In this document: one piece after another, positions 4,415 through 58,056 of the stretch
Layout of the letters: each line of letters opens with the position of its first letter
Numbering within the stretch: the stretch's first letter is position 1
Origin: Fistulifera solaris
Taxonomy: Eukaryota
DNA: 64,000 bases
Reading direction: 5' to 3'
NCBI GenBank assembly: GCA_030295235.1
Contig: AP026164.1
Location: 1,984,001 to 2,048,000, forward strand
Position numbers and translations under genes: made by a program
Notes under the pieces: model-generated
The model's database searches: none
Told to the model about the DNA's origin: nothing
Seen by the model: the letters and a program-made list of their open reading frames with translations, nothing else

Positions 4415-4976
4415 ATGAGCAGTAGCTTTATCGAAAGTAGTTTCGATTATCAAAGCCTTCTCCCCTCCCGATTTCGAAGCGACCGGCTTGATGTTGAATC
4501 GATTGAGGAGCCCGTCGACGAGACCGGAGAACCGTGTAGCTGTTTTCCCGAAATGACCTGGCGAGAAAGGTTGCTGGGATGTGTAACCTGCATGCTATGT
4601 GGTTACATGCTTTCTATTGGAAGTTTTTGGCGCATCAAGGATCTAGTGATCAATCATGATCCTCTTCCTTTTGTTTTGAATGCGACGATTGGCAACATCA
4701 TCGCTCTTGCGGGGTCTTTTCTTTCTCACCGGACCCAAAGCGCAGTGGAAGAACATGTGGCTAGAGAAACGACGTATCGCAACCGGATTATATCTCGGAT
4801 CTCTGTTTTTGACGTTATTTGTGGCGTTTCTGCCGATTCCCGGACCGGAAGGCTTCTATTTGCTTCTGCTCATGCTCTGTCAGTATATATCCATCACGTG
4901 GTATACTCTTTCGTATGTTCCATTCGCTCACGACATTATAGTGAGCTTTGTGCGACGAAGAATTTCGGTGTCCTAA
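4415..4976 (+). CDS. SFT2: SFT2/Got1 family vesicle transport protein (frameshift ~4720)
   Basis: MTWRERLLG...GNIIALAGSFFLTGPKAQWKNMW.EKRRIAT..Y...WYTLSYVPFA, diagnostic SFT2 motifs across two frames. Confidence 0.85.
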
Positions 4977-5341
4977 ATCAACAATTTGATTCCCAGCATC
5001 ATTATGGGCCTTGAGATTTTGAAATCTTTATAGAGCAAATTTCACGACTATGACCTCCACTTTACTGAATATGGCTTCGCTCCCAAAGCGACTTGTTCAG
5101 TAAGCAAGACGCTTGTCGAACCTATCGCTTTGTGCTCTCCATGACTTGTTCTTAGGCATCCACAATTTCCGATACACAAGCTTACGACATGGACGTCAAA
5201 CGTCAAAGTTAAGCGTTATGAAGGCGACCGCGGAAGTCACAATTTACCCCTGACTCGAAAAAGTTATCCATCCCCCACATGGACAGCTTGAACAAATACG
5301 CCGGTTCATCGCTGATCTCCGATTGTCACCTTTTCGCTTTT

Positions 5342-5539
5342 CTGCGGAGAAGGCTTTCTCTTACTCTCCATCCTCTGGAAAAAGAAACGAGGTATCGTCA
5401 GCCCATCGAATTTCATCGAAGAAATTGGCCGAGAGGAATTGCTGCGGAGAAAGCTTTCTCTTACTCTCCATCCTCTGAAGAAAAGAAACGAGGTATCGTC
5501 AGCCCATCGAATTTCATCGAAGAAATTGGCCGAGAGGAA
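5342..5539 (+). repeat. ~100 bp tandem duplication at the 5' breakpoint of the GTPase pseudogene
   Basis: ctgcggaga...ggccgagaggaa at 5342-5438 and 5442-5539, near-identical with one indel. Confidence 0.9.
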
Positions 5540-6535
5540 GTTGGTTAGTTCAAATGGAAGAACACTAGCGGAGATAAGAAAAACCAAGCCGTCAGTGAAG
5601 AAGGGCACTACAAAGAACGTCATGAGGCAACGGACTTCAATAATTTTCTCGGAGCTTTGAGGGACTTGATTGGCGACAAATTGTCTCAACTGAAAACTAT
5701 ATAGGAGCAGGTGAAACTTTCATTGAAGAACTTATCTCTTGTACAAAGCTTGGCGGACCAATTTCAGGCAGCTGATGAAAAATCCAAAGCTGTGGGTAGG
5801 CAATCGGCTAATATCCTTACTTCTGGAGGACGTACGACGAACTTGAAAAGCCTGTGACAAGCGATTTTTTGGGGTCAACGCCTAAAGACGTTCTTTCGAA
5901 GGGATGACTGAATCAAAGTGCTTTTAAACTTGGACCATCAAGCCTCTTGGGAACGGGAGCAGAACAAGACTCTTGAGAGCACGAGAGGTCTCATTCGTCG
6001 CCCACCTTGTCTTTGAGAAGGCGTCCGAATGTAAGAACAAGATGGGATCTGGTGCTTACCTCCCAAATCACCACCACACGAGTGGTCTGACCTATCTCCT
6101 TTGGACTGGCATTCAATCTTCATATCCATTTTAGTTGATATCATACAACAAAACGTTCTGCTGCACCTTTGGCTATGAAAAGAGTCTGGTTGAGATCATC
6201 AAAGACAGTTTAAGTATTTCATCATTGAGCTGCGCATATTGTTGCTAGAGGCTTACATGGGCAATGTCGAAACAGATTCGGTAGTTGTGGAAACTGTAAC
6301 TATGGTAGTACCTACCGCTCTCACATCGTTGCAGTGATTTCGGGAATCAAGCGTCCCACCCCAGCAATATCTTTGCTTTCACTCTTGATAGTAAAACAGA
6401 GCTGTGCACCGTCAACAAAAACCTTTTTTGCACGCATTCACTCTGCCAACGCCGACGTCTTTTTCCGATCCTAAGCACTGGGGGCACCTCGCGTGGGTGT
6501 ACTGTGAAGTCATCGACTCCTCACAGGCGATGTGA
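5413..6535 (+). pseudogene. Degraded copy of the C-terminal two-thirds of the dynamin-like GTPase gene
   Basis: Collinear DNA similarity to 7963-8989 (IEEIGREEVG*FKWKN...DLSPLDWHSI...SDPKHWGHLAWVYCEV) with in-frame stops and indels; no G domain. Confidence 0.9.
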
Positions 6536-7122
6536 ACCCTGAGAATTACGTAGGTCCCCTAAAACTTAAACAACATATAATTACAGATTCGTTACCAGGT
6601 ACTCACAACAAATATTGTGGTTACAGGTTACAGGTGGTTGTCCCATAGAATCCATGCGTGAGCGACGTCCAAAGTGGAATAAACATAGCCGTGCAAGCAA
6701 TAAACAGCATCAACGCAAGGCTAAAATTTCATCGTTCTAAACGACACGGAGACTTTCAAGCGACTGCACAACAGAAGTTGGAATATCCAGGACATGGTCC
6801 TTATGGCAATCATTCAAGCTATTCGTCTAGCAATTTTTTTGGAAGCTCTAGAAATCTAGCCACGTTCTGATGATTGCCGGTTGGACATTATTTCATGAGG
6901 AACATTTTCTACAGCTATGTTCGCCATTCACTTGCGTGCTTTTTTTATTAGAATAAACCAGCCATATACTCGTTTGGAAAAACAACGAACAGCCAAAAAA
7001 GCAAACCCAAGGAAAATTTCACCAACCAATCAAATTGAAGCAGATATCGCTTCGGCTCCATTTTTTGAACGGCCGAGACGTTTTACGCTTTCATTTTCTT
7101 CTGACAAGATCTCAAAAATACA

Positions 7123-8989
7123 ATGATGGTGCACGCCAAGACTGACATCAAAGTTGCCCTGATCGGGCACGTTTCGGTGGGTAAGACGACGGTCCTTAAT
7201 GCGTTGTTTCGTGACAAGTTCGGCGAGGTTTCGATGAAACGAACGACTGCGGGAATTGACTATTTTCGTATCATCCCCAAGCAAAAGGATGCAAGCAAGA
7301 AGCTCAACGGAGAAAAGAATGCGAAGGGATCGGTGGACAAAATTGGTAAACAGTGGGTCGATATTGCGTCTTACGATACAAAGTCCGCAGGAGCGGTTCT
7401 CAAGGAGATTACGGTCGACAACATGGCCTTTCGAAACTCTTCGGCTATTCACGAGAAATTCTTTGACATTGAACTTGATGAACCGCTGTGTGACATGCGC
7501 AAGGATACAGATCTTGTTGTGGTTGACGTACCGGGCATCAATGAGGCCGGCGCTGGCAGCAAGTATCGGGACTTTGTCGAGAAGAAGTGGGACACGTTTG
7601 ATGTTGTTGTCCTGGTGATGGACGGGAAACAAGGGGTCAACACGGAGGAGCAGTTGAAGCTCCTTCAGTTTGTCAAGAACAACCAAGAAAACGAAACGGA
7701 GAGTTTCATTGATTATTCTTTTGAACAAAGTGGACGATCCCGATGATGAAGAACAGTCCAATCTGGTCGACGAATCTCGCAAGGAGGCAGAGCGGCAATT
7801 CAGCTGCACGCTCGAAAAGCTCCTTCATAGTACTCAGAAGAGCACCAAGAGTAAGACGAGCAAATTTACCCCAATCCTTATTCCGACGTCTGCCATGCAT
7901 GCCTACTTCTATCGTACCGCGTCGTTGATGACCTTCGATCAGTTCAAGAAGTTCGACAAGGATCTCATCGAAAAAATCGGCCGAGAAGAGGTTGGTAAGT
8001 TCAAATGGAAGAACCTTAGCGGGGATAAGAAATACCAAGCCGTCTACGAAGCCGTCAGTGAGGAAGGACAGTACAAGGAACGTCTCGAAGCCACGAACTT
8101 TGACAAATTCCTCGAAGCATTAAGGGATTTCCTTGGTGACGAATCGGGTCAGCTGAAGATTTTACAAGAGCAGGTCAGGGTTTCATTGAAGAACTTATCC
8201 CCTAAGCAAGGCTTGGCGGATCAATTTGAATCTGCATACGAGAAGTCGAAGGTTGTCCGCATGCCCGCAACAGACCTTAGCAGTCACTTCTGGGTCAAGT
8301 ACGACGACTTAGAAAAAAGAGTCATCAAAGACCTCGTAGGACCCGCATCGATTTGCATCTTGTCTGAAGCAATGAAAGAACTAAAGAGCTTCTATGAAAT
8401 AGCGCACGGCGCTTCTTGGCATGAGGATCAGCAAAAGGCCCTTGAACGAATGAAAGGTCTTGTGCGTCACCCACTGCTACCTTTGTTAGAGAAGGCGACA
8501 GCATGCAAAAATCAAATGCAAGGAGGTGCTTTTACCGCGACGTCTCCCCCAACTCAATGGGCCCATTTATCTCCTTTGGACTGGCATACGATCTGTAGTT
8601 CTTTTTTGCTGCTTTCGTGCTACAAATCATTTTGCACAACCTTTGGCTATGAAAAGATGTTGGTAGAGATGGTCAAAGACAGCCTCAGTTCGTCTTTGTT
8701 GAGCTTCACGTACTGTTGCTCCAAGGTTACATGGGAAGGTCAGGAAAGGAACGGAATTCGTGATGGAGGATACACTCGTTGCGGTAGCTGCGGCCGCCAA
8801 TATTATAACACACAGCAAGCGAATATTTTCGCTTTTGAGTTGAACCGCAATTTAGAGCTACTTCCCAGCAATAAAAATGTTTACACCAGCGCGTTCACTC
8901 AACCAATTCCGACGACCATATCGGATCCAAAACACTGGGGACATCTTGCTTGGGTGTACTGTGAGGTCGTGGAGTCCCATACAGCGTGA
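7123..8989 (+). CDS. Dynamin-like (Dynamin_N/TRAFAC) GTPase with helical C-terminus and Cys-rich insert; one frameshift ~7690
   Basis: G1 GHVSVGKT, G2 KRTT, G3 DVPG, G4 NKVD (just after the shift at an A-run); two ORFs join into ~620 aa. Confidence 0.8.
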
Positions 8990-9429
8990 TCTCTAAAAGA
9001 ATACATATTACACAAAGTAGCAATGATTCGTTATCATTTTTTCGGCAACTCGTTAGGGACGAGAAGCTCATTGCAATTCGAAAGCGTCGTTGATACGTAG
9101 ACCACAATTTTGTCTCGTAACGCAAAACCTTCCTTCAAATCCAGGGCGCTTGCTTTATGGACGTTTGTTGCGGTGAACGAAATAGGTTAACATCTCATTG
9201 AATGAGAAGTATGATCCGGTTACGTGTGTTTATTCTTTGCGTCGATAACCTTCCAAAAAGTCAAAAGTCAAAAGTCGTCGCAATTACAGTAGGAGTAAGT
9301 GTATGAAATGAGTGACTGAACTGGCTCGGTCAGGCGTCAGGCATAAGCACGTCAACATGATCATCTCCATGATCAGACGGTGTAACGTAATTCATCGTGT
9401 TGCATGCCTATATTCTTTATTCATTCTAG

Positions 9430-10684
9430 TGGTGGACGATCCAGATGATGAAGAACAGTCAGTTCTTGTCGATGAATCGCGTCAAGAAGTTGAAAAGGAA
9501 TTTGGCTGTCGAATCGAAGAACCCCTTACCACGCATAATGAAGCTCGTAAAGAGGGGGATGCGCCCATCCCCGTTCTCATGCCGACGTCTGCCATGCATG
9601 CCTACTTCTACCGTACTGCGTCACAGATGACTTTCGATCAGTTCAAGTTGATCGACAAAGAGCTCATTGAAAAAATCGGCCGGGAGGGAGTTGGCAGATT
9701 CAAATGGAAGGAACTCAGCGACGATAAACGCTTTCAAGCCGTTTATGATGCAGTCAGCGGGGAAGGGCAGTACAATGAGCGTCTCGAAGCTACGAACTTC
9801 GACAAATTTCTTAGCGCTTCGAAGAAAATCATCGGCGATGAGCAAACTCAACTTATGACCTTGCGAGAGCAGGTCTTGGTAACATTAAAAAACCTCCCGA
9901 AGAAGCAAGGGTTAACTGATGAATTTAAGTTTATCTACGAGAAATCGAAGACAGTGGGTATGCCAGCAGAACCTCTTCGCGATATTTATTGGATTATGTA
10001 CGGGGAACTGGGAAAGCGAGTTGTTTGTGCCTTCATAGGACCCAAAACGAGACACGTTTTGTCAGAGGCAATGATTGAAATTGCACATTTCTTCGAGTCA
10101 GCATGTCGTGCATCGTGGGAAGACGACCGGAATAAATCTCTCGATCGTATGAGATTCCTCACTCGCCACCTCCTGGTCTTTATTTTCGAAAAGGTGAAAG
10201 AATGCAAAGAAAAGATGAAAACGGGCACTGTTGTTCCGAAGTCTCCCCCACTTGTATGGGCAGACTTATCTTCTTTGGACTGGGATTCAATCTGTAGTTC
10301 CATCTTGTTGCTTGGGTACAGCAAATCTTTCTGCAGCACTTATGGCAGTGAAAAATGCTGCTTGAAATTTTGAGAGACAGTCTCATGGCCTCGTCCTCGT
10401 ATTGTGCTCATTGTAAATGTTGGGTGGCTCGCAATAAGAATGTCAATTATGGCAGCAGCGACTATCACGCTCAAGGCCGTTGCAGCAAGTGTGGCACGCA
10501 ATAGACCGAATCATCCAGTAGCTTCACTTTTGCCTTGGACGAAGAACTAGAGCTTATTCCCACTGATAACACACTCTTCTCAACTGTCTTTACCCAGGCA
10601 CTCCCGACGGCGTTCTCGGATCCTAAGCACTGGGGACATCGTGCCTGGTTGTATTGTGAGGTCGTTGACTCGCATACAATATAA
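9430..10684 (+). pseudogene. Third GTPase paralog lacking the G domain; frameshift ~10352 and in-frame TAG ~10502
   Basis: Homology starts abruptly at VDDPDDEEQ and runs to SDPKHWGHRAWLYCEVVDSHTI*; no G1-G3 motifs upstream. Confidence 0.8.
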
Positions 10685-10806: not shown

Positions 10807-12441
10807 TTACTCAAACATTGAGAAACCCATTCCAATCTGAAAACTTCTACGGTGGTCAACAGGTCCATATCGCAAAGGCCAGGCATAGGTAACGTCCAAG
10901 CGCGGACCTAACATTGTTGTAGAAAGACCAACGCCCACAGACGAACGGCTACTGGCCAGAACGTCACGGGGGGACACCACTTGCCACCGTGGTCGTGAAA
11001 GTATTTCAGCGCAGGTACCAACAGTTCCGAAGACAAACATGCGCGTTCCGGGTGCGGGAACAGCTGCACTCATCATAGCTGTGATCTTGTAGAAAAAGTC
11101 ACCACCAATGGCGTCTCCTGTAGAAGACTTGCATGTTTTGGCAGCTCGTGGACCCATGCCAGCTGGAGAAAATCCCTTAAAGTTCGATGGTCCTCCCATC
11201 AAGAAGCGATCGCTAAAGGACGCCGACGTTCGACACAGACCGTCAAAAGAAATCGTTTTCAAAACCCCGACAGATCCCATAGCGTGGAACGAGAAGGGTA
11301 ACGAGCTGTTTTGGGACCCTAAAAGCGACGGAACAGGGACATGTAGCGCCACATCGGCTTGGCTCTTTACAAAACCAGCGTCACCTGGCGGCACAGCCGC
11401 CTCTGTCTGTATTCGATACTGATAGCCACTCGTGGGAAAGTAGGGAGACGCCTCTGGATCAAAGCATTGGTTTCCTTCGACTCGCAGCGAGACACTGTGC
11501 TTGACGGATGGGCCCGAATGAGCTAAAACCTCTGGAGACGCATCAAAATGATAAGGCAAAGACGCGTGCCTTCGTGGTATAATATCACGAAACAACAAAC
11601 TCCATTCAATGCTAGCTCCGAATGGTGGAAGCGTCCGACGAGTTGTACTTGCGGTCACTGAAAGAAGCCTTTGGCATTCTCGGAAACTGCGGGTGAGTTC
11701 CCAATCCACAGTATCCCACACAGCCTTCGAGAGAAGTGAATATTGGCTTCCCGAAGGCAAAAGAAGAATCCAGTCGCGTAGAATAAATCCCGACGGCAAA
11801 GCGCTGTACAAAGGGCGCTGATGTTGCAGCGACCATGATGATATTTGGTGTGTATCCAGTGTGTATTGTAAATCGGTCGTATCCAAATACCCAGAAATGT
11901 TTCTCAGTCCAACACTGGCTTCGAGTTCCGCCGTTGGCAAAAAACTTGTATCATGTGTACTGCTGGCTCCAAACGGCGTTGATGTCTGTTGAAAGGCGTC
12001 GCGTTTAAGTCCACCGCCCAGGTAGAGCTTGTACCAGTTCTTTTCGTCCAGAGTCACGGTTAGCTTCCGTGATGGATCGCTTTTCTCGTCTTCAGAGCTT
12101 GTTGATCCTCCTAATTTAACCTGCACCGCATCAAAGCATCCCGATGCTTCCAATTGCTGCACAAAGCCAGCAACGGCTTCGACGGTTTCTCCCACCGATG
12201 TGGGAACCTCAAACAAAAGACCGGCTTCCAGCAATCGGTGCTGAATGAGTTCGGAATCCGTTCGGGGAGCGATACCCGCCTTGGTACTTTCAACAAGCGC
12301 GGGGAACGAAAATTGCGTTAGATATTGCGCCGCAAATTGCTGTACGCGTAGCTGCTGTTCAAGTTGCGCCTGCTCTTGCTGGAGCTGACGCATCCTGGCT
12401 TCGGTGGCTTGTTGTTGCGTCACAGAGGGAACTAGATTCAT
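10807..12441 (-). CDS. SAM50: Omp85-family beta-barrel, SAM50-like
   Basis: POTRA-like N-part, DRFLMGG..FKGF...GMGPR, GDAIGGD, RSSVGVGL, C-terminal FQIGMGF beta-signal. Confidence 0.8.
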   Translation of the reverse strand: MNLVPSVTQQQATEARMRQLQQEQAQLEQQLRVQQFAAQYLTQFSFPALVESTKAGIAPRTDSELIQHRLLEAGLLFEVPTSVGETVEAVAGFVQQLEASGCFDAVQVKLGGSTSSEDEKSDPSRKLTVTLDEKNWYKLYLGGGLKRDAFQQTSTPFGASSTHDTSFLPTAELEASVGLRNISGYLDTTDLQYTLDTHQISSWSLQHQRPLYSALPSGFILRDWILLLPSGSQYSLLSKAVWDTVDWELTRSFRECQRLLSVTASTTRRTLPPFGASIEWSLLFRDIIPRRHASLPYHFDASPEVLAHSGPSVKHSVSLRVEGNQCFDPEASPYFPTSGYQYRIQTEAAVPPGDAGFVKSQADVALHVPVPSLLGSQNSSLPFSFHAMGSVGVLKTISFDGLCRTSASFSDRFLMGGPSNFKGFSPAGMGPRAAKTCKSSTGDAIGGDFFYKITAMMSAAVPAPGTRMFVFGTVGTCAEILSRPRWQVVSPRDVLASSRSSVGVGLSTTMLGPRLDVTYAWPLRYGPVDHRRSFQIGMGFSMFE

Positions 12442-12871
12442 GGTGCTGATTCCGCCTCGGTCCTCGGGCTTTTGATTATATACAGATTTATTTACAGGAG
12501 AATGGATCGATTTCCTCAAGGTAAGTCTTTTGTATTACTGAAGTATGGAATGCCTCCAATTCGATGTCGAAGTTGATGGATAACAAACACAAATGTGCGT
12601 CCGTTCCGAAATAAGCACACGGGACACGGGCACACGGCACATCACATACACGATACACGGGTGACCGCCGCCGTCTGATCGTCAACGGTAGAATCTTTTC
12701 TATGCAAGCCAAGTCATGAGTCGTCAGTCATGATTTGTCTAAAGAATAGCACTGGGCATTGGAGATGGGATTTGGTCATAAACCAGCATGACAACCGTAA
12801 GACATTTGAATACGGCTCAATCTTCATAAGTTACTACTCCATACATTTGTTATTTGCATTACTAACTCGAT

Positions 12872-52295: not shown

Positions 52296-55200
52296 TTATT
52301 CCTGCTCATTATTGGTCTCGTCCTTCTTCTCGTTGACTTGAGAGTCGAAGAGGGGCTGAGAAATAGGCACATTCGAACTTCCAAACGAACCGAATGGATT
52401 TGTCCCCGACCCAAAAGCATTGAAAGGTGAGGTTGCTGGCGCCGGACCCGGTTGAGCAGGCGTCGGTAATTTGAACGAGGACGTGCCAAAAGAGAAGGAC
52501 ACACTGGATGAACTTCCCGGAGGCTTCATATCAAGAAATGAAGTACTGCTGCCCCCACCAAACACTGGGTTTGCGAATGTCGGCGCTTCGTCTTGTTCTC
52601 CCTCCTGTTTACCCCCCTACGCTGGGCGCTGTTGCTGTTGAAGAGCTAAAGATTGGGGTTGTCACTGTGTTGAAAGACAAGGAACCGCCGGAACCGAAAG
52701 CTGGAATGTTTGTGGAGGCAGGCGGTGCAACGAGCAAGTCCATTTTGGAGGCATCGGCAGAATCACTCATTGGTTCGCTTTGCTCGACGTCTACCTTCTT
52801 CGTAACATCGTCATCTTCTCCCTGCTCTTGCGCATCTAGAACAAGCGATTTCTTGTCGGGCTCGGTTTTTCTTAGTTCAGCATTTGATGAGTCGAGACTT
52901 GATCCAGGAGCGTCTCCCGTTTTCGCCCTTTTTTCATGGTCGTTAGACGGGTCTGACTGGGCATTCTGACTGGCCTCAATTTCAAGTTTTCTCTTGCGAA
53001 GTTTGGCTTCTTCGAGTTTGCGCTTCTTCTCTATTAATTTTTCTTTCATAGAGAGTTCCTTCTTTTCACCTGACATTCGCCTAGTTGGCTTTGGAATCTC
53101 TGCTTCCGAACCAGCTAAAGCTGAATCAGGAACAGCATCTCTCGTCGTCGCTTCACTAGACTTGTTCTTTGAGGGCACGTCACCAGTTGTGGATAGAACC
53201 TGCGGCTTTAGCTCACTGGTGTTTTTCCCCGGTGTGTATACCTCGGCTTCGGCTCGTAGAGGTGATCGTTTCTTAGATTCGACCAGTTGCTGCGTCTCAC
53301 GTGTACCGTCACTTGGTCCAAAGGTGAACCCATCTTCCGGAATCATAGGAAGTCTTTCCTCTAACACTTCTGCGTGCTTCTCGGAATCCGGGTTGCTAGA
53401 GGGTTTCAAAGCTTCGGTTGACACTTCATGGTCTGCAGACGAACTCTTCAAGGCTGCAAGCTGGTCTGAGAGCTTTTTCTCACTGTCTTTGAGTTCCCGT
53501 ATCGTTGACTGAAATTTCCTGAGCGTTTCACGTAGCCTATTATTCTGTTCGTTTGCCCCATCCAATTGAGTTTTGTGGGAAGCTGCCTCTCTTTTCAATT
53601 TGTCCACTGTTGTCTTTAGTTCCTGATGTTCCTCTAGAATCTTTGCGTTCGAAACTTTAATATTCGATAACTTTTCATTTTCCGCTGCAAGTCTTTCGAT
53701 TTCTTTTGTTTTCTCGTCGATTAAAGCTTTTTGCTCCCTGGCTTTCTGATTTAAGTTTTTAGCAATGTTTCTAATGCGTACACTTTCTTCTTCGGTCGCT
53801 TTCTTCCAAGCATTCAGTGACTCCTTTTCTTCTTCCATTGCGCGGATAGTTTCCTTTAACCGGCTATGCTCTTCTGGATCGATTTGATTGAACTTCGAAA
53901 CCAAATTTTGCACTCTTTCCTTCCAAGCTCCAAGGTCTCTTTTCAATCCGTCTCGTTCGGCATCCAGTGCAGCCACTTGTGCACGTAGCTCGCAAATAAC
54001 TGCCTCATTCGGCTTAGAAGACTCTTTCACCACTTCAATCTCTTGTTGCAAGTCCAAATTCTCCTTCTGTAACCTCTCTTTTTCGGTACGTAACACCTTA
54101 TTGCTATCTGTCAATACCATAACTTGTGCTTCTACATCATGGATCTTCTGAACAGCTTCGTTGCCTTGGTCTCCTTTGTCACGTGATTCGGAAAGTAGTA
54201 CATGAAGTTCGGCTCTCGCTTGATCCAGGTTTCTTTTCAAAACATTGCTTGCTGATCTTTCACGATCGAAGGACCGCTTTGTGTTGTCGAGCTCCGACTG
54301 AATCAGCTCGTTCTCGGATCGAAGGAAACGGACTAGTTCGCGTAACTCTGAAACTTCTTTCTGTTGCGCGTGACTGAGCTGCTCGGCTCCGTCATCCCTT
54401 AAGCTGGTATCTACAATGTTTGTCTGTGTTGCGTTTCGCAAGTTTTCAAGCTGCGTGTGTAATGCAGCATTCTGTTCTCTTGCATGCTTCAATGTTTGCA
54501 TTTTTATTTCAAGCGCCTCTTGAAGAGATGACTTTTCTTCTGCCCAGGCTTCACGGTGGCCCTCGCTTTCTCTTTGCAGCGTCAGAAAACTGCTTCGAAG
54601 CTCGGTATTGGTTTGCTCTTCTTTACTCAGCTTTTCCTGGACTTCTCGTAGCGAAGACCTTGCCTGAGAATGTAGACGAAGTTCTCGTTCATAGTTTCTC
54701 TGAGCGATCGTAATCTCGCTGCGCAAACTTTCAACATCTAATTTTAGGGTCACATTCGCTTCTTCTAATGCTTCGACGTCTCTCGACTGGCTTTCAATTG
54801 TGGCTCTCAACGTTGCGATCTCGGTTGTCAGTTTTGTCTCATTCTCACTTCTTTCGTCTCGGTAACCAGCTAAATCATTGGTAAGATCTTGAATAATTTC
54901 TTGCTTCGAAATATTCAAAGCTGACAAACTTTTCACCTTCTCCTCCAAGTCAGCTAATTCTCGTACTTGCTTAGTCGTATTCTCTTCGGTTAGTGCTTTC
55001 AGGGTAGCAAGCTCTGACTCACTAGCTTGGGAAAGGTTTTTGTAGGTCGTGATCTTTTCCGTCATCGAGGCAAGCTCAGCGTCTTTCAAATCAATTTGCA
55101 ACGCAAGACTGTCGATGCGTGCTTGCAGAGATGCGTAAACATCATCATCTCCTGTTAAAACGGCATCCGCTTTGGTGGTCACTTCAAGCTGCGACTCCAA

Positions 55201-57773
55201 TGATTTGCATTTGGACGCCAAACCATTCAATTCTGCCTTAACTTCCAATAAAGCCTTGTCGGCCTTCAACAAGTCGGCCTGAGCTTTAGAGCTTAAATGT
55301 TCGAGATCCTTGACCCGCATATCACTTTCACTCAATTGAAGCTGCAACTTCTCAACTTCACCAGAGTGCTTGTCTCGCTCCAGTTTCAATTGCGAAGAAA
55401 AGCGGGCGACCTCTTCATGGAGTTTTTTCTTGCTCGCTCCCAGCTTTGGTTGCGAGTGTTGCCTCGATGCGGCGTAGGTTATCGTTGACAGACCCATACC
55501 GAGCAACGTCGGCGCGTAGTTGGTGATTTTCTTCAACCGCACGGGCCTCAGAAGCTTTGGCGGTATCTACTTGAGCTTGCAGGAGACGAAGATTACTCTC
55601 CATCCGCCGGGAGTCTTCTTCGGCGCGGCTTAATCTTGAGTTCACTTGCGAGAGGCTTCGCTGAAGGTCCGCATTCATTCGTTCTAACTCGCTTTTTGCA
55701 TTCATGATGGACCGAACTTCACCACGAGAGCGCTCAAGAGCTGATTCCAAGCGTTCCGACTTCTCCTTATGATAGTCAGTCTCAGATGACCTGCGAGCCG
55801 CTTCGCTACGATGCAAAACCAGCTGGCTTTCTAAAGAGTCAACAGAGCTTCTCAACTCAGCTAACACTGATTCGTACCGACCAATACGTTCCGATAAGCT
55901 CTCTTTTTCTCTCAAAGCAGAATTATAATCCGACTTGGCAGCAACCAGCTGGTTTTCTAACTCTTTGTTGCGTTCTTCAAGAGCCCTGGACCGGTCCGAT
56001 TGCCGTTTTAACACGGCCAAAGCGTCTGCTTCGTCCTGAAAAGAGCCTAAAATGTTACTATCCTTTGATACCAACAGCGATTTATATAGATCGCGCTGCA
56101 TAGCAATTTGAATCGCAAGACTTTCCTGATCGCGCTGCTCCTGTCGAAGAATATTCAACTCGGATTCTTGATCCTCAAGCTTCCGCTGTAGGTCGTCATT
56201 GTCGATTTTTCGCTCAAGATCTTCAATGACTAGCATCAATCGTTGCTGCTCAGCAAGCAACCGCTGGTTCTGACTCTGCATTTGCTGGACAGACAAAGGA
56301 ACATCATCATCAACATTTCCACCGGAGCGGCTTGTGAGAAGCCCCTGTACCTGCTTTGCCAATTCTTCTGACTCCTTCTTCTTGGTAGCGAGGACGAGTC
56401 GCATAGTAGATATTTCATTCTGAGCATCTCTAGCTTCCTCTCTTGCGGTATCGCGATCAAAAATGACTTGCCGCAACCTCTGTTCATAATCGTTCATTTT
56501 GTCCATAGCGAGTTCGTACTCCTCAAGTTGGCGAATCATTTTTGGGCGAAAGTCCAAAATGTCTTGCTCTACCTGTCTGAACTGTAGTTGCCAATGTTTA
56601 CATTGAATCTTTTCCTGTCGAAGCGCCTGCTTTGTCTCTTCAAGTTTTGTGTACAGATCTGTCAATGACATCGGTTCTGCGTCTTTCTCGTCGTCAATGG
56701 CCATTTCGATACTATTTGCGATAGTGCCAACGTATCGTGGATTTGCTTGCAGCTCTTCTAGCTTCTTCTCGTAATCTTCTTTCTGCCGTTCGAGAAGTTG
56801 TTGTTTTTCAGTTTCCAATTCAAGACGTAAGCTACTAAGCTCCTCCTCGTTTGCCTCCATGGCACGTGCAGCTGCTTCTTTCATGTCTTCATTTTGACGG
56901 ACCACGTCATTGTACCGCTGTTGCCACCTTTCTAAATGATCCTTTTGCAATTGAACGAGTTTCTTTTCCGCTCTCAACTGATCTTCACTTGTCTCTTGAA
57001 CGGCAACAAGCTCCTGCTTTGTGGAAAGAAGATCCCGAGAAAGCCGGTCAACCTTTTGTTGCAATTCTACCTCAGTTTGCTTTACAATTTGAAGACTTGC
57101 TTCCACGGTCTTTTTTCTCTGTTGTGGTTTGGTCTATTTGCATGTGGAGGTCGAGCGTGCGGTCGCGCGATTCTTGCTGAAGGCGATTATAGTCTTCGGC
57201 TTTTTGCTGAAGTTCTTTCTCTAGCCATTTAGAGTGAGCTTGCAGGCTATCGATTTCAATTCGAAGACGTTGAGTTTCAAGGAAGAGGGGGATAGCCTCA
57301 GAATCTTTCAACTTGGTCTGAACCTCCAGTGTCGAAATGATCTTTGATTTCTCAGCATTCTGATCAGATAATCGACTTTGCGACAAGAAAACTGTTAAGA
57401 AACAATTCATCTTGCGAATGCGGTATCTTGGTAGAACGTACCTCAACTCTTCTCGTAGCGAATCACTTTCGGCTTGAGATCTATCGACTCGTTCTTGAGC
57501 CAACTTAATGCTCTCTTCCAGTGTCTGAATTTTTGACTGTGTGACCAACTTATTTGCTACTTCTTTCTCAAGTTCGATCCGTAATTGCGAGATCGTTTCA
57601 CTGGCATCGTCAACTAAATTCTCCTTAACCTCCAACAGCTCGTGCTCCAAGCGATCGCGTTCCTCTCGGACTGCAAAATATTGGCGCTCCAAGTCTTCCA
57701 GCACCGTTTGCGAAACCAAATCGTCACCGCGAGGGAACGGCGCCTCTGCTGAATCGTCAAAATCCGTGTCCAT
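52296..57773 (-). CDS. TPR: Nuclear basket nucleoporin TPR/Mlp1 (intron ~57441-57377; frameshifts ~57105, ~55430, ~52610)
   Basis: Very long coiled coil; SLTDLY, QNQRLL, QRDLYK.LL, AQRNYERELRLH, ELRELVRFLRSE.E, WKERVQNLVSK...IDPEE; FG-rich tail. Confidence 0.85.
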
Positions 57774-57978
57774 GCTTTCCAACGTTTCCTGTGCTTGCAA
57801 AAGTAAGTTTAGTTCACGAAAATAACTGATCAAATGGATGGGATTGTCCTTGTGTTTCTAGTCTTATCTTCGATCCGCTGCGCCAGAGAGCCCGCGAAGA
57901 CTTCACGAGGCCGAGAGCGGCAAACGGTAGTTAACTCGTACGACGCACGTACTAGCTAGGGATGCTGGGTTCTGGGAA

Positions 57979-58056
57979 CTGGGAAGGACGATTCTGCCTC
58001 CCAGTACAAGATTCTACGTAGCGACCACGACGAGGCAGAATTTTCACGCCGTTTCC
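57979..58056. repeat. Dispersed stem-loop element, copy 2
   Basis: ctgggaaggacg-attctgcctcccagtacaagattctacgtagcg...acgacgaggcagaatttt.acgccgtt, matches 45352-45435. Confidence 0.85.

Follow-up and report, generated by a model that had tools for sequence, protein, structure and literature searches.

The stretch of the Fistulifera solaris genome analyzed here (64,000 nucleotides, G000:C4:1984001-2048000, of the 51.7-Mb, 62-contig assembly G000; hereafter the window, to whose coordinates unprefixed positions refer) carries an array of three paralogs encoding a dynamin-like GTPase, a diatom family whose nearest relatives found were GTPases of the Nucleocytoviricota. This giant-virus kinship of the diatom family is a new result of the present analysis. 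We tentatively propose that the array represents a family of soluble dynamin-like GTPases engaged in host-virus conflict, in which a conserved GTP-driven engine is joined to a variable recognition tail.

A preliminary description of the array had left giant-virus affinity to be tested, and comparisons of fold, profile, insert, and tree topology found it. Viral matches reached E values of 1.5e-16 by fold and 8e-44 by profile, and the reciprocal profile match between diatom and viral proteins extended beyond the P-loop. The viral relatives are DLP_2-like GTPases (Hyperionvirus A0A3G5A8L0, Satyrvirus A0A3G5ACP1, Tupanvirus A0A6N1NTC4, mimivirus R618a, and GVMAG open reading frames [ORFs]) that have in common with the diatom proteins a G1 of the form G.VS.GK[ST]T.LNA, a K-R-T-T G2, a D.PG.N G3, an NK.D G4, a post-G5 insert, helices to residue ~430, and a length of 580-750 aa. 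The helical insert, placed by joint alignment at residues ~278-298 (7955..8017, + strand), was common to the giant-virus relatives but gapped in the bacterial dynamin-like protein (DLP), FZL-like, and DRP1-like rows shown. Against seven distant outgroup rows, diatoms and viruses formed a joint clade as two sister clades (support 98/95). The two sides are nonetheless distinct: identity is ~21%, none of 39 viral rows has the DPxH[WF]G end motif of the diatom proteins, and CxxC motifs are rare among these rows. In one published article, a major viral clade lies near DLP_2 sequences (PMC11915834), and this is probably the clade found here. Two viral members (L150:3002-5785 and L224) bear an N-terminal extension of ~300 aa, which in L150 consists of short tryptophan-rich repeats that are also present in a neighboring ORF.

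The intact gene of the array, copy B (7123..8989, + strand), corresponds to the named record FisN_20Lh269 (P0123, 621 aa). It appears in the window as two frames (7105-7746 and 7658-8989) because a homopolymer at 7688 has one A too many. Assembly errors were checked against contigs of runs X1 and X3, X1 possibly deriving from the same sample as the window, and because the extra A was missing from all three X1 contigs covering the site and P0123 reads straight through it, we consider copy B intact. With this error removed, the full gene with G1-G4 proposed at these positions is confirmed: G1 GHVSVGKT (7165-7188), G2 MKRTT (7234-7248), G3 DVPG (7525-7536), and G4 NKVD (7724-7735), read from the + strand, are all conserved in family alignment A1, and among 130 near-full family rows G3 was kept in 128 and G4 in 125. 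The Pfam Dynamin_N match (PF00350; 47.4 bits, cut-off 27), together with these motifs, places the G domain in the dynamin superfamily, in agreement with the preliminary description. A structure model of copy B (pLDDT 88.3, pTM 0.85) has an enlarged G domain of dynamin type followed by packing helices, the arrangement of the BDLP/mitofusin-like (DLP_2) branch. The N-terminal ~365 residues hold G1-G4 in a fold like the G domains of SynDLP and mitofusins, while the C-terminal ~255 residues (8216..8986, + strand) form a compact helical domain matching no solved fold well, with a variable Cys-rich hairpin (cysteines at 8714-8719 and 8780-8791, + strand), which may bind zinc, and a conserved end motif, DPxHWGHLAW (8924-8962, + strand). 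No transmembrane segment was found in copy B, the highest 19-residue hydropathy mean (1.34) being located in the P-loop strand.

As had also been suggested, the protein is not a classical dynamin, DRP1, or Vps1. Neither frame of copy B matched Dynamin_M or GED in Pfam at E<=1, and no GBP N-terminal domain was among its matches at that threshold. GHVSVGKT is unlike the GxQSxGKSS type of classical dynamin, DRP1, Vps1, and Mx, a type that the DRP1-like gene of this genome exemplifies (Dynamin_N 182 bits versus 47); separate DRP1-, EHD-, FZL-, and DRP5-like genes, so labeled from a reading of their motifs, are present in the same genome. A homoeologous pair of loci (L047 and L061, on G000:C18 and C17) has, by motif reading, an Mx-like G1 region and appears frameshifted. 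Matches to bacterial DLPs and mitofusins (SynDLP 7zw6, BDLP 2j68, IniA 6j72, MFN1/2, and Fzo1) were limited to residues 1-382; the diatom protein differs from these in having neither a transmembrane segment nor a recognized long stalk, and bacterial sequences scored far more weakly than viral ones (best 8e-8 across 401 genomes from a single bacterial phylum and 2e-4 in plasmids). The LeoA/LeoBC antiphage system was considered and rejected: the LeoA match was confined to the G1 region (25 bits over residues 6-39 of a 559-position model), and the neighbors are SFT2 and SAM50 instead. The Dynamin_N domain is held in common with Mx, MidX, MADS/group D, and PADS; host-virus sharing has been described for MidX, MADS, and PADS (PMC10280142, PMC11789081), and for Mx, gene turnover and the position of MxB near the nuclear pore (PMC11789081). 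The survey of 123 viral dynamin-like proteins in PMC10280142 built its tree from the core classes, excluding mitofusins and BDLPs, and PMC11789081 omitted highly divergent GTPases; the word "diatom" is absent from the main text of these two articles and of PMC11915834. No description of the family was found in the literature searched, which included the accessible parts of PMC11043551, PMC12305248, PMC10570341, and bioRxiv 10.64898/2026.10.11.758280.

The copies on either side of copy B are true pseudogenes. Copy A (5510..6535, + strand) is the orthologue of the intact P0001 on C3, to which it is 82% identical in DNA and relative to which it has four premature stops and nine frameshifting indels. 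A deletion of ~1 kb took its start and G domain (the homoeologue jumps from C3:2049215 to 2050248), and a 100-bp tandem duplication lies across the deletion junction (5339..5539, + strand; repeats 5339-5438 and 5439-5539, 96%). The preliminary description was right that this is a decayed 3' copy, but homology starts at 5510 rather than at 5413. Copy C (9431..10684, + strand) is G-domain-less, as had been noted for 9430-10684: sequence up to G4 is missing, ~840 bp comprising its start and G domain having been replaced by 192 bp of filler (9239..9434), and two further lesions, loss of 1 bp near 10350 and a TAG at 10502, are present as well. Of the filler, 77 bp (9358-9434) match, at 82-86% identity, the terminal direct repeats of dispersed 5-6 kb elements, one of which (L043) has 184-bp repeats, is flanked by a 4-bp duplication, and is bounded by ACAG...CTGT; the G domain may thus have been lost through insertion of an LTR retroelement followed by deletion. 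No integrase or reverse transcriptase match was obtained with Pfam in three ORFs of L043. Two such direct-repeat-bounded elements of 5.4-6.3 kb (L043:776-7113, that is, G000:C4:1932776-1939113, and L044:648-6074) have terminal repeats 98-100% identical and are therefore recent. X1 contigs covering 5510-6091, 6070-7206, 8719-9782, and 9956-10565 were letter-identical to the window, matched the copy C junction, and showed no internal gap in either copy; because they reproduce the lesions with no other letters, these are not assembly errors.

Fistulifera solaris has been described as allopolyploid (PMC5935921), and contig pairs C3/C4 and C1/C2 are collinear at roughly 82-90% identity; following the record names, we label the subgenome of the window (C4) L and that of C3 H. 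On the H chromosome, all three copies have a G domain; they are P0001 (627 aa), P0002 (620 aa), and P0126 (520 aa, truncated). The 5-bp deletion that truncates P0126 is not present in copy C, which has lesions of its own, so the two copies decayed independently. A fourth GTPase locus lies on C1/C2. A 6.7-kb segment of C1 (G000:C1:2037648-2044312), which has no counterpart at the matching place on C2, contains three ORFs that gave no Pfam match and also the fourth GTPase copy's 5' end. Of eight copies in the assembly, three match full-length records (P0001, P0002, and P0123) and five are broken, truncated, or unverified.

Paralogs A and B have been kept alike in the G-domain part by gene conversion while their tails diverged, with a boundary at 8215 (residue ~365). 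On H, 8.5% of sites (92 of 1088) separate A from B before this point and 36.8% (283 of 769) beyond it, whereas the control pair, B on H versus B on L, differs evenly on the two sides (9.2% and 9.4%). Protein likeness of A and B falls from 92% in residues 241-365 to 61% in 366-520 and 46% in 521-590, and runs of shared A/B sites indicate that conversion took place after the split of the two parental genomes. Copy gain, loss by deletion, and conversion were thus all seen, which bears out the birth-and-death array of the preliminary description; such lineage-specific behavior resembles that of immunity GTPases (Mx/GBP/IRG-like). The further proposal of an immunity locus found no direct sign: B on L versus B on H gave a dN/dS of 0.13 at dS 0.35, indicative of purifying selection and within the range of eight neighboring gene segments (0.07-0.40). 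The variable hairpin gave 0.21 between copy B and its homoeologue, and paralog pairs with unsaturated dS gave 0.05-0.37.

A search of 50%-cluster representatives returned 249 matches at E<=1e-30 and 711 at 1e-10, all without names. Every named match listed for the family was a diatom (Fistulifera, Cylindrotheca, Seminavis, Epithemia, Amphora, Entomoneis, Asterionellopsis, or Extubocellulus), so that the family spans three diatom classes: raphid, araphid (Asterionellopsis), and polar centric (Extubocellulus). The family is multicopy, as had been stated, with separate expansions in several genera: in a 225-row FastTree, the named rows of Fistulifera (4 rows, support 100), C. closterium (5, 99), and Epithemia (3, 97) each formed one group relative to other named rows, and Seminavis (8 rows) needed three. 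A second tandem copy was found at 4 of 33 metagenome loci (L075, L076, L080, and L100), although L075 and L076 look like one locus in two samples; at nine metagenome loci longer than 7 kb the flanks looked eukaryotic by eye.

Large inserts in the family are concentrated at flexible positions (residues ~238, ~465, and ~560, and both termini). FG- or GLEBS-rich inserts occurred in 22 of 269 rows, near-duplicates counted, and the Pfam GLEBS cut-off was passed by 6 of 30 long members in a chosen set. On the tree, 16 FG/GLEBS rows need 12 changes and five GLEBS rows need four; in the whole G000 genome there were only two GLEBS matches. One relative (P0113) also contains a fused SUI1 domain (Pfam 2.5e-19), and three others (P0038, P0050, and P0059) have arrays of four to seven CxxC motifs in the variable hairpin.

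Under the proposed host-virus reading, the GTP-hydrolyzing engine, kept uniform by gene conversion, would assemble with itself in a GTP-dependent manner, by likeness to other dynamin-superfamily proteins, and both the tail and the modules inserted into flexible loops would bind targets. Nup98-like FG/GLEBS segments in some relatives might act as nuclear-pore anchors or decoys, an attractive idea because animal viruses target the RAE1-NUP98 GLEBS (PMC12666860). Copies are acquired genus by genus and removed by deletions, and a single old exchange with giant viruses would account for the kinship; since only diatoms were named on the eukaryote side, transfer from virus to diatom would be the more likely direction. 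Several observations weigh against this reading. Pairwise dN/dS was below 0.4 in every region computed and gave no sign of positive selection, although pairwise averages are blind to selection at single sites. The relatives come from culture transcriptome sets (MMETSP), and expression therefore needs no known infection. Both dead copies are on one subgenome of an allopolyploid, where duplicate loss is expected, and may in part reflect such loss rather than an arms race. Copy B has no recognized membrane segment or long helical stalk or trunk, and no FG/GLEBS insert was found in the three Fistulifera proteins. On the viral side, support was 95/79, with viruses and diatoms sister rather than nested, and nesting with one long-branch viral row was not rejected (p-AU 0.343); the diatom C-terminal half alone had no viral match (best E 0.4), while whole-model diatom/viral alignments ran 570-664 columns. 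Finally, giant-virus infection of diatoms is suggested only by insertion signals (PMC10570341).

The main rival is a housekeeping or stress GTPase, virus-derived or virus-shared, acting in membrane traffic or in organelle or wall-vesicle remodeling, of which one copy is needed while spares decay neutrally, hastened by allopolyploid loss. The dN/dS result fits this well, copy B being kept on both subgenomes at a value close to those of SAM50 (0.12) and Serrate (0.10), as do the presence of the family across the three diatom classes, the transcripts from cultures, and nearest solved folds that are membrane-remodeling proteins. Separate expansions in several genera, a very variable tail with repeated capture of foreign modules, the want of a hydrophobic membrane segment, and a genome already holding DRP1-, EHD-, FZL-, and DRP5-like genes speak against it, and we regard it as doubtful though a serious contender. 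A narrower form of the host-virus reading, in which a giant-virus GTPase was domesticated as a diatom antiviral family (viral-type engine, per-paralog tail, and FG/GLEBS decoys or anchors) in an algal parallel to Mx, seems unlikely. More improbable is a nuclear-pore or mRNA-export GTPase, active at the nuclear envelope, that captured FG/GLEBS for better docking to Rae1 and nucleoporins, a defence role being optional: the GLEBS matches, their recurrence on the tree against so few in G000, and the insertion sites favor it, but about nine-tenths of sampled rows, all Fistulifera copies included, have no insert, FG-rich low-complexity tails were counted without a diatom-proteome control, and some terminal extensions are possibly gene-model fusions. 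A nearly neutral relic of a giant-virus insertion, persisting by repeated duplication with no specific cellular task, would suit the viral kinship and the number of damaged copies but is very improbable, being largely refuted by the strong purifying selection and further opposed by the retention of G3 and G4, by persistence across three classes, and by the want of viral genes among the flanking genes tested.

The array lies between an SFT2/Got1-family gene (4415..4976, + strand; Pfam Got1 3.6e-15) and a SAM50/Omp85-family gene (10807..12444, - strand; Pfam Omp85 1.2e-21), and ORFs and the Pfam matches of both neighbors agree with the earlier placement of three same-strand paralogs here. The array copies are intronless, as had been described, and some relatives outside the array look interrupted after G1. 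With Pfam, no viral genes were seen among the tested flanking genes. An apparent frameshift at 4717 in the SFT2 gene is an assembly error, X1 and X3 contigs omitting one letter. Single-base homopolymer errors break intact genes at 4717 and 7688 in the window and near 2052548 and 2055670 on G000:C3 (seen against P0002 and P0126), and other apparent pseudogenes of this genome therefore need read checks. Near the array is a gene with a 2'-5' RNA ligase-like (2H) domain (1702-2484, - strand; Pfam 1.1e-9), with ASF1 and Serrate genes on the array's other side. Farther away, 53001-58000 shows strong negative AT skew (to -0.35) together with GC skew over ~5 kb, probably reflecting a long repetitive minus-strand coding sequence.

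Diatom defences against viruses are, to our knowledge, poorly understood. The species has three intact copies, and CRISPR editing has been reported in it (PMC13276009), which makes the family a concrete, knock-out-ready defence candidate; even if its role is housekeeping, it is a dynamin-like GTPase whose C-terminal domain no solved fold matches well. Through the diatom proteins, a giant-virus GTPase clade that the cited dynamin surveys had set aside gains a branch among eukaryotes, and, if transfer did proceed from virus to host, these proteins would be a record of old contact between diatoms and giant viruses.

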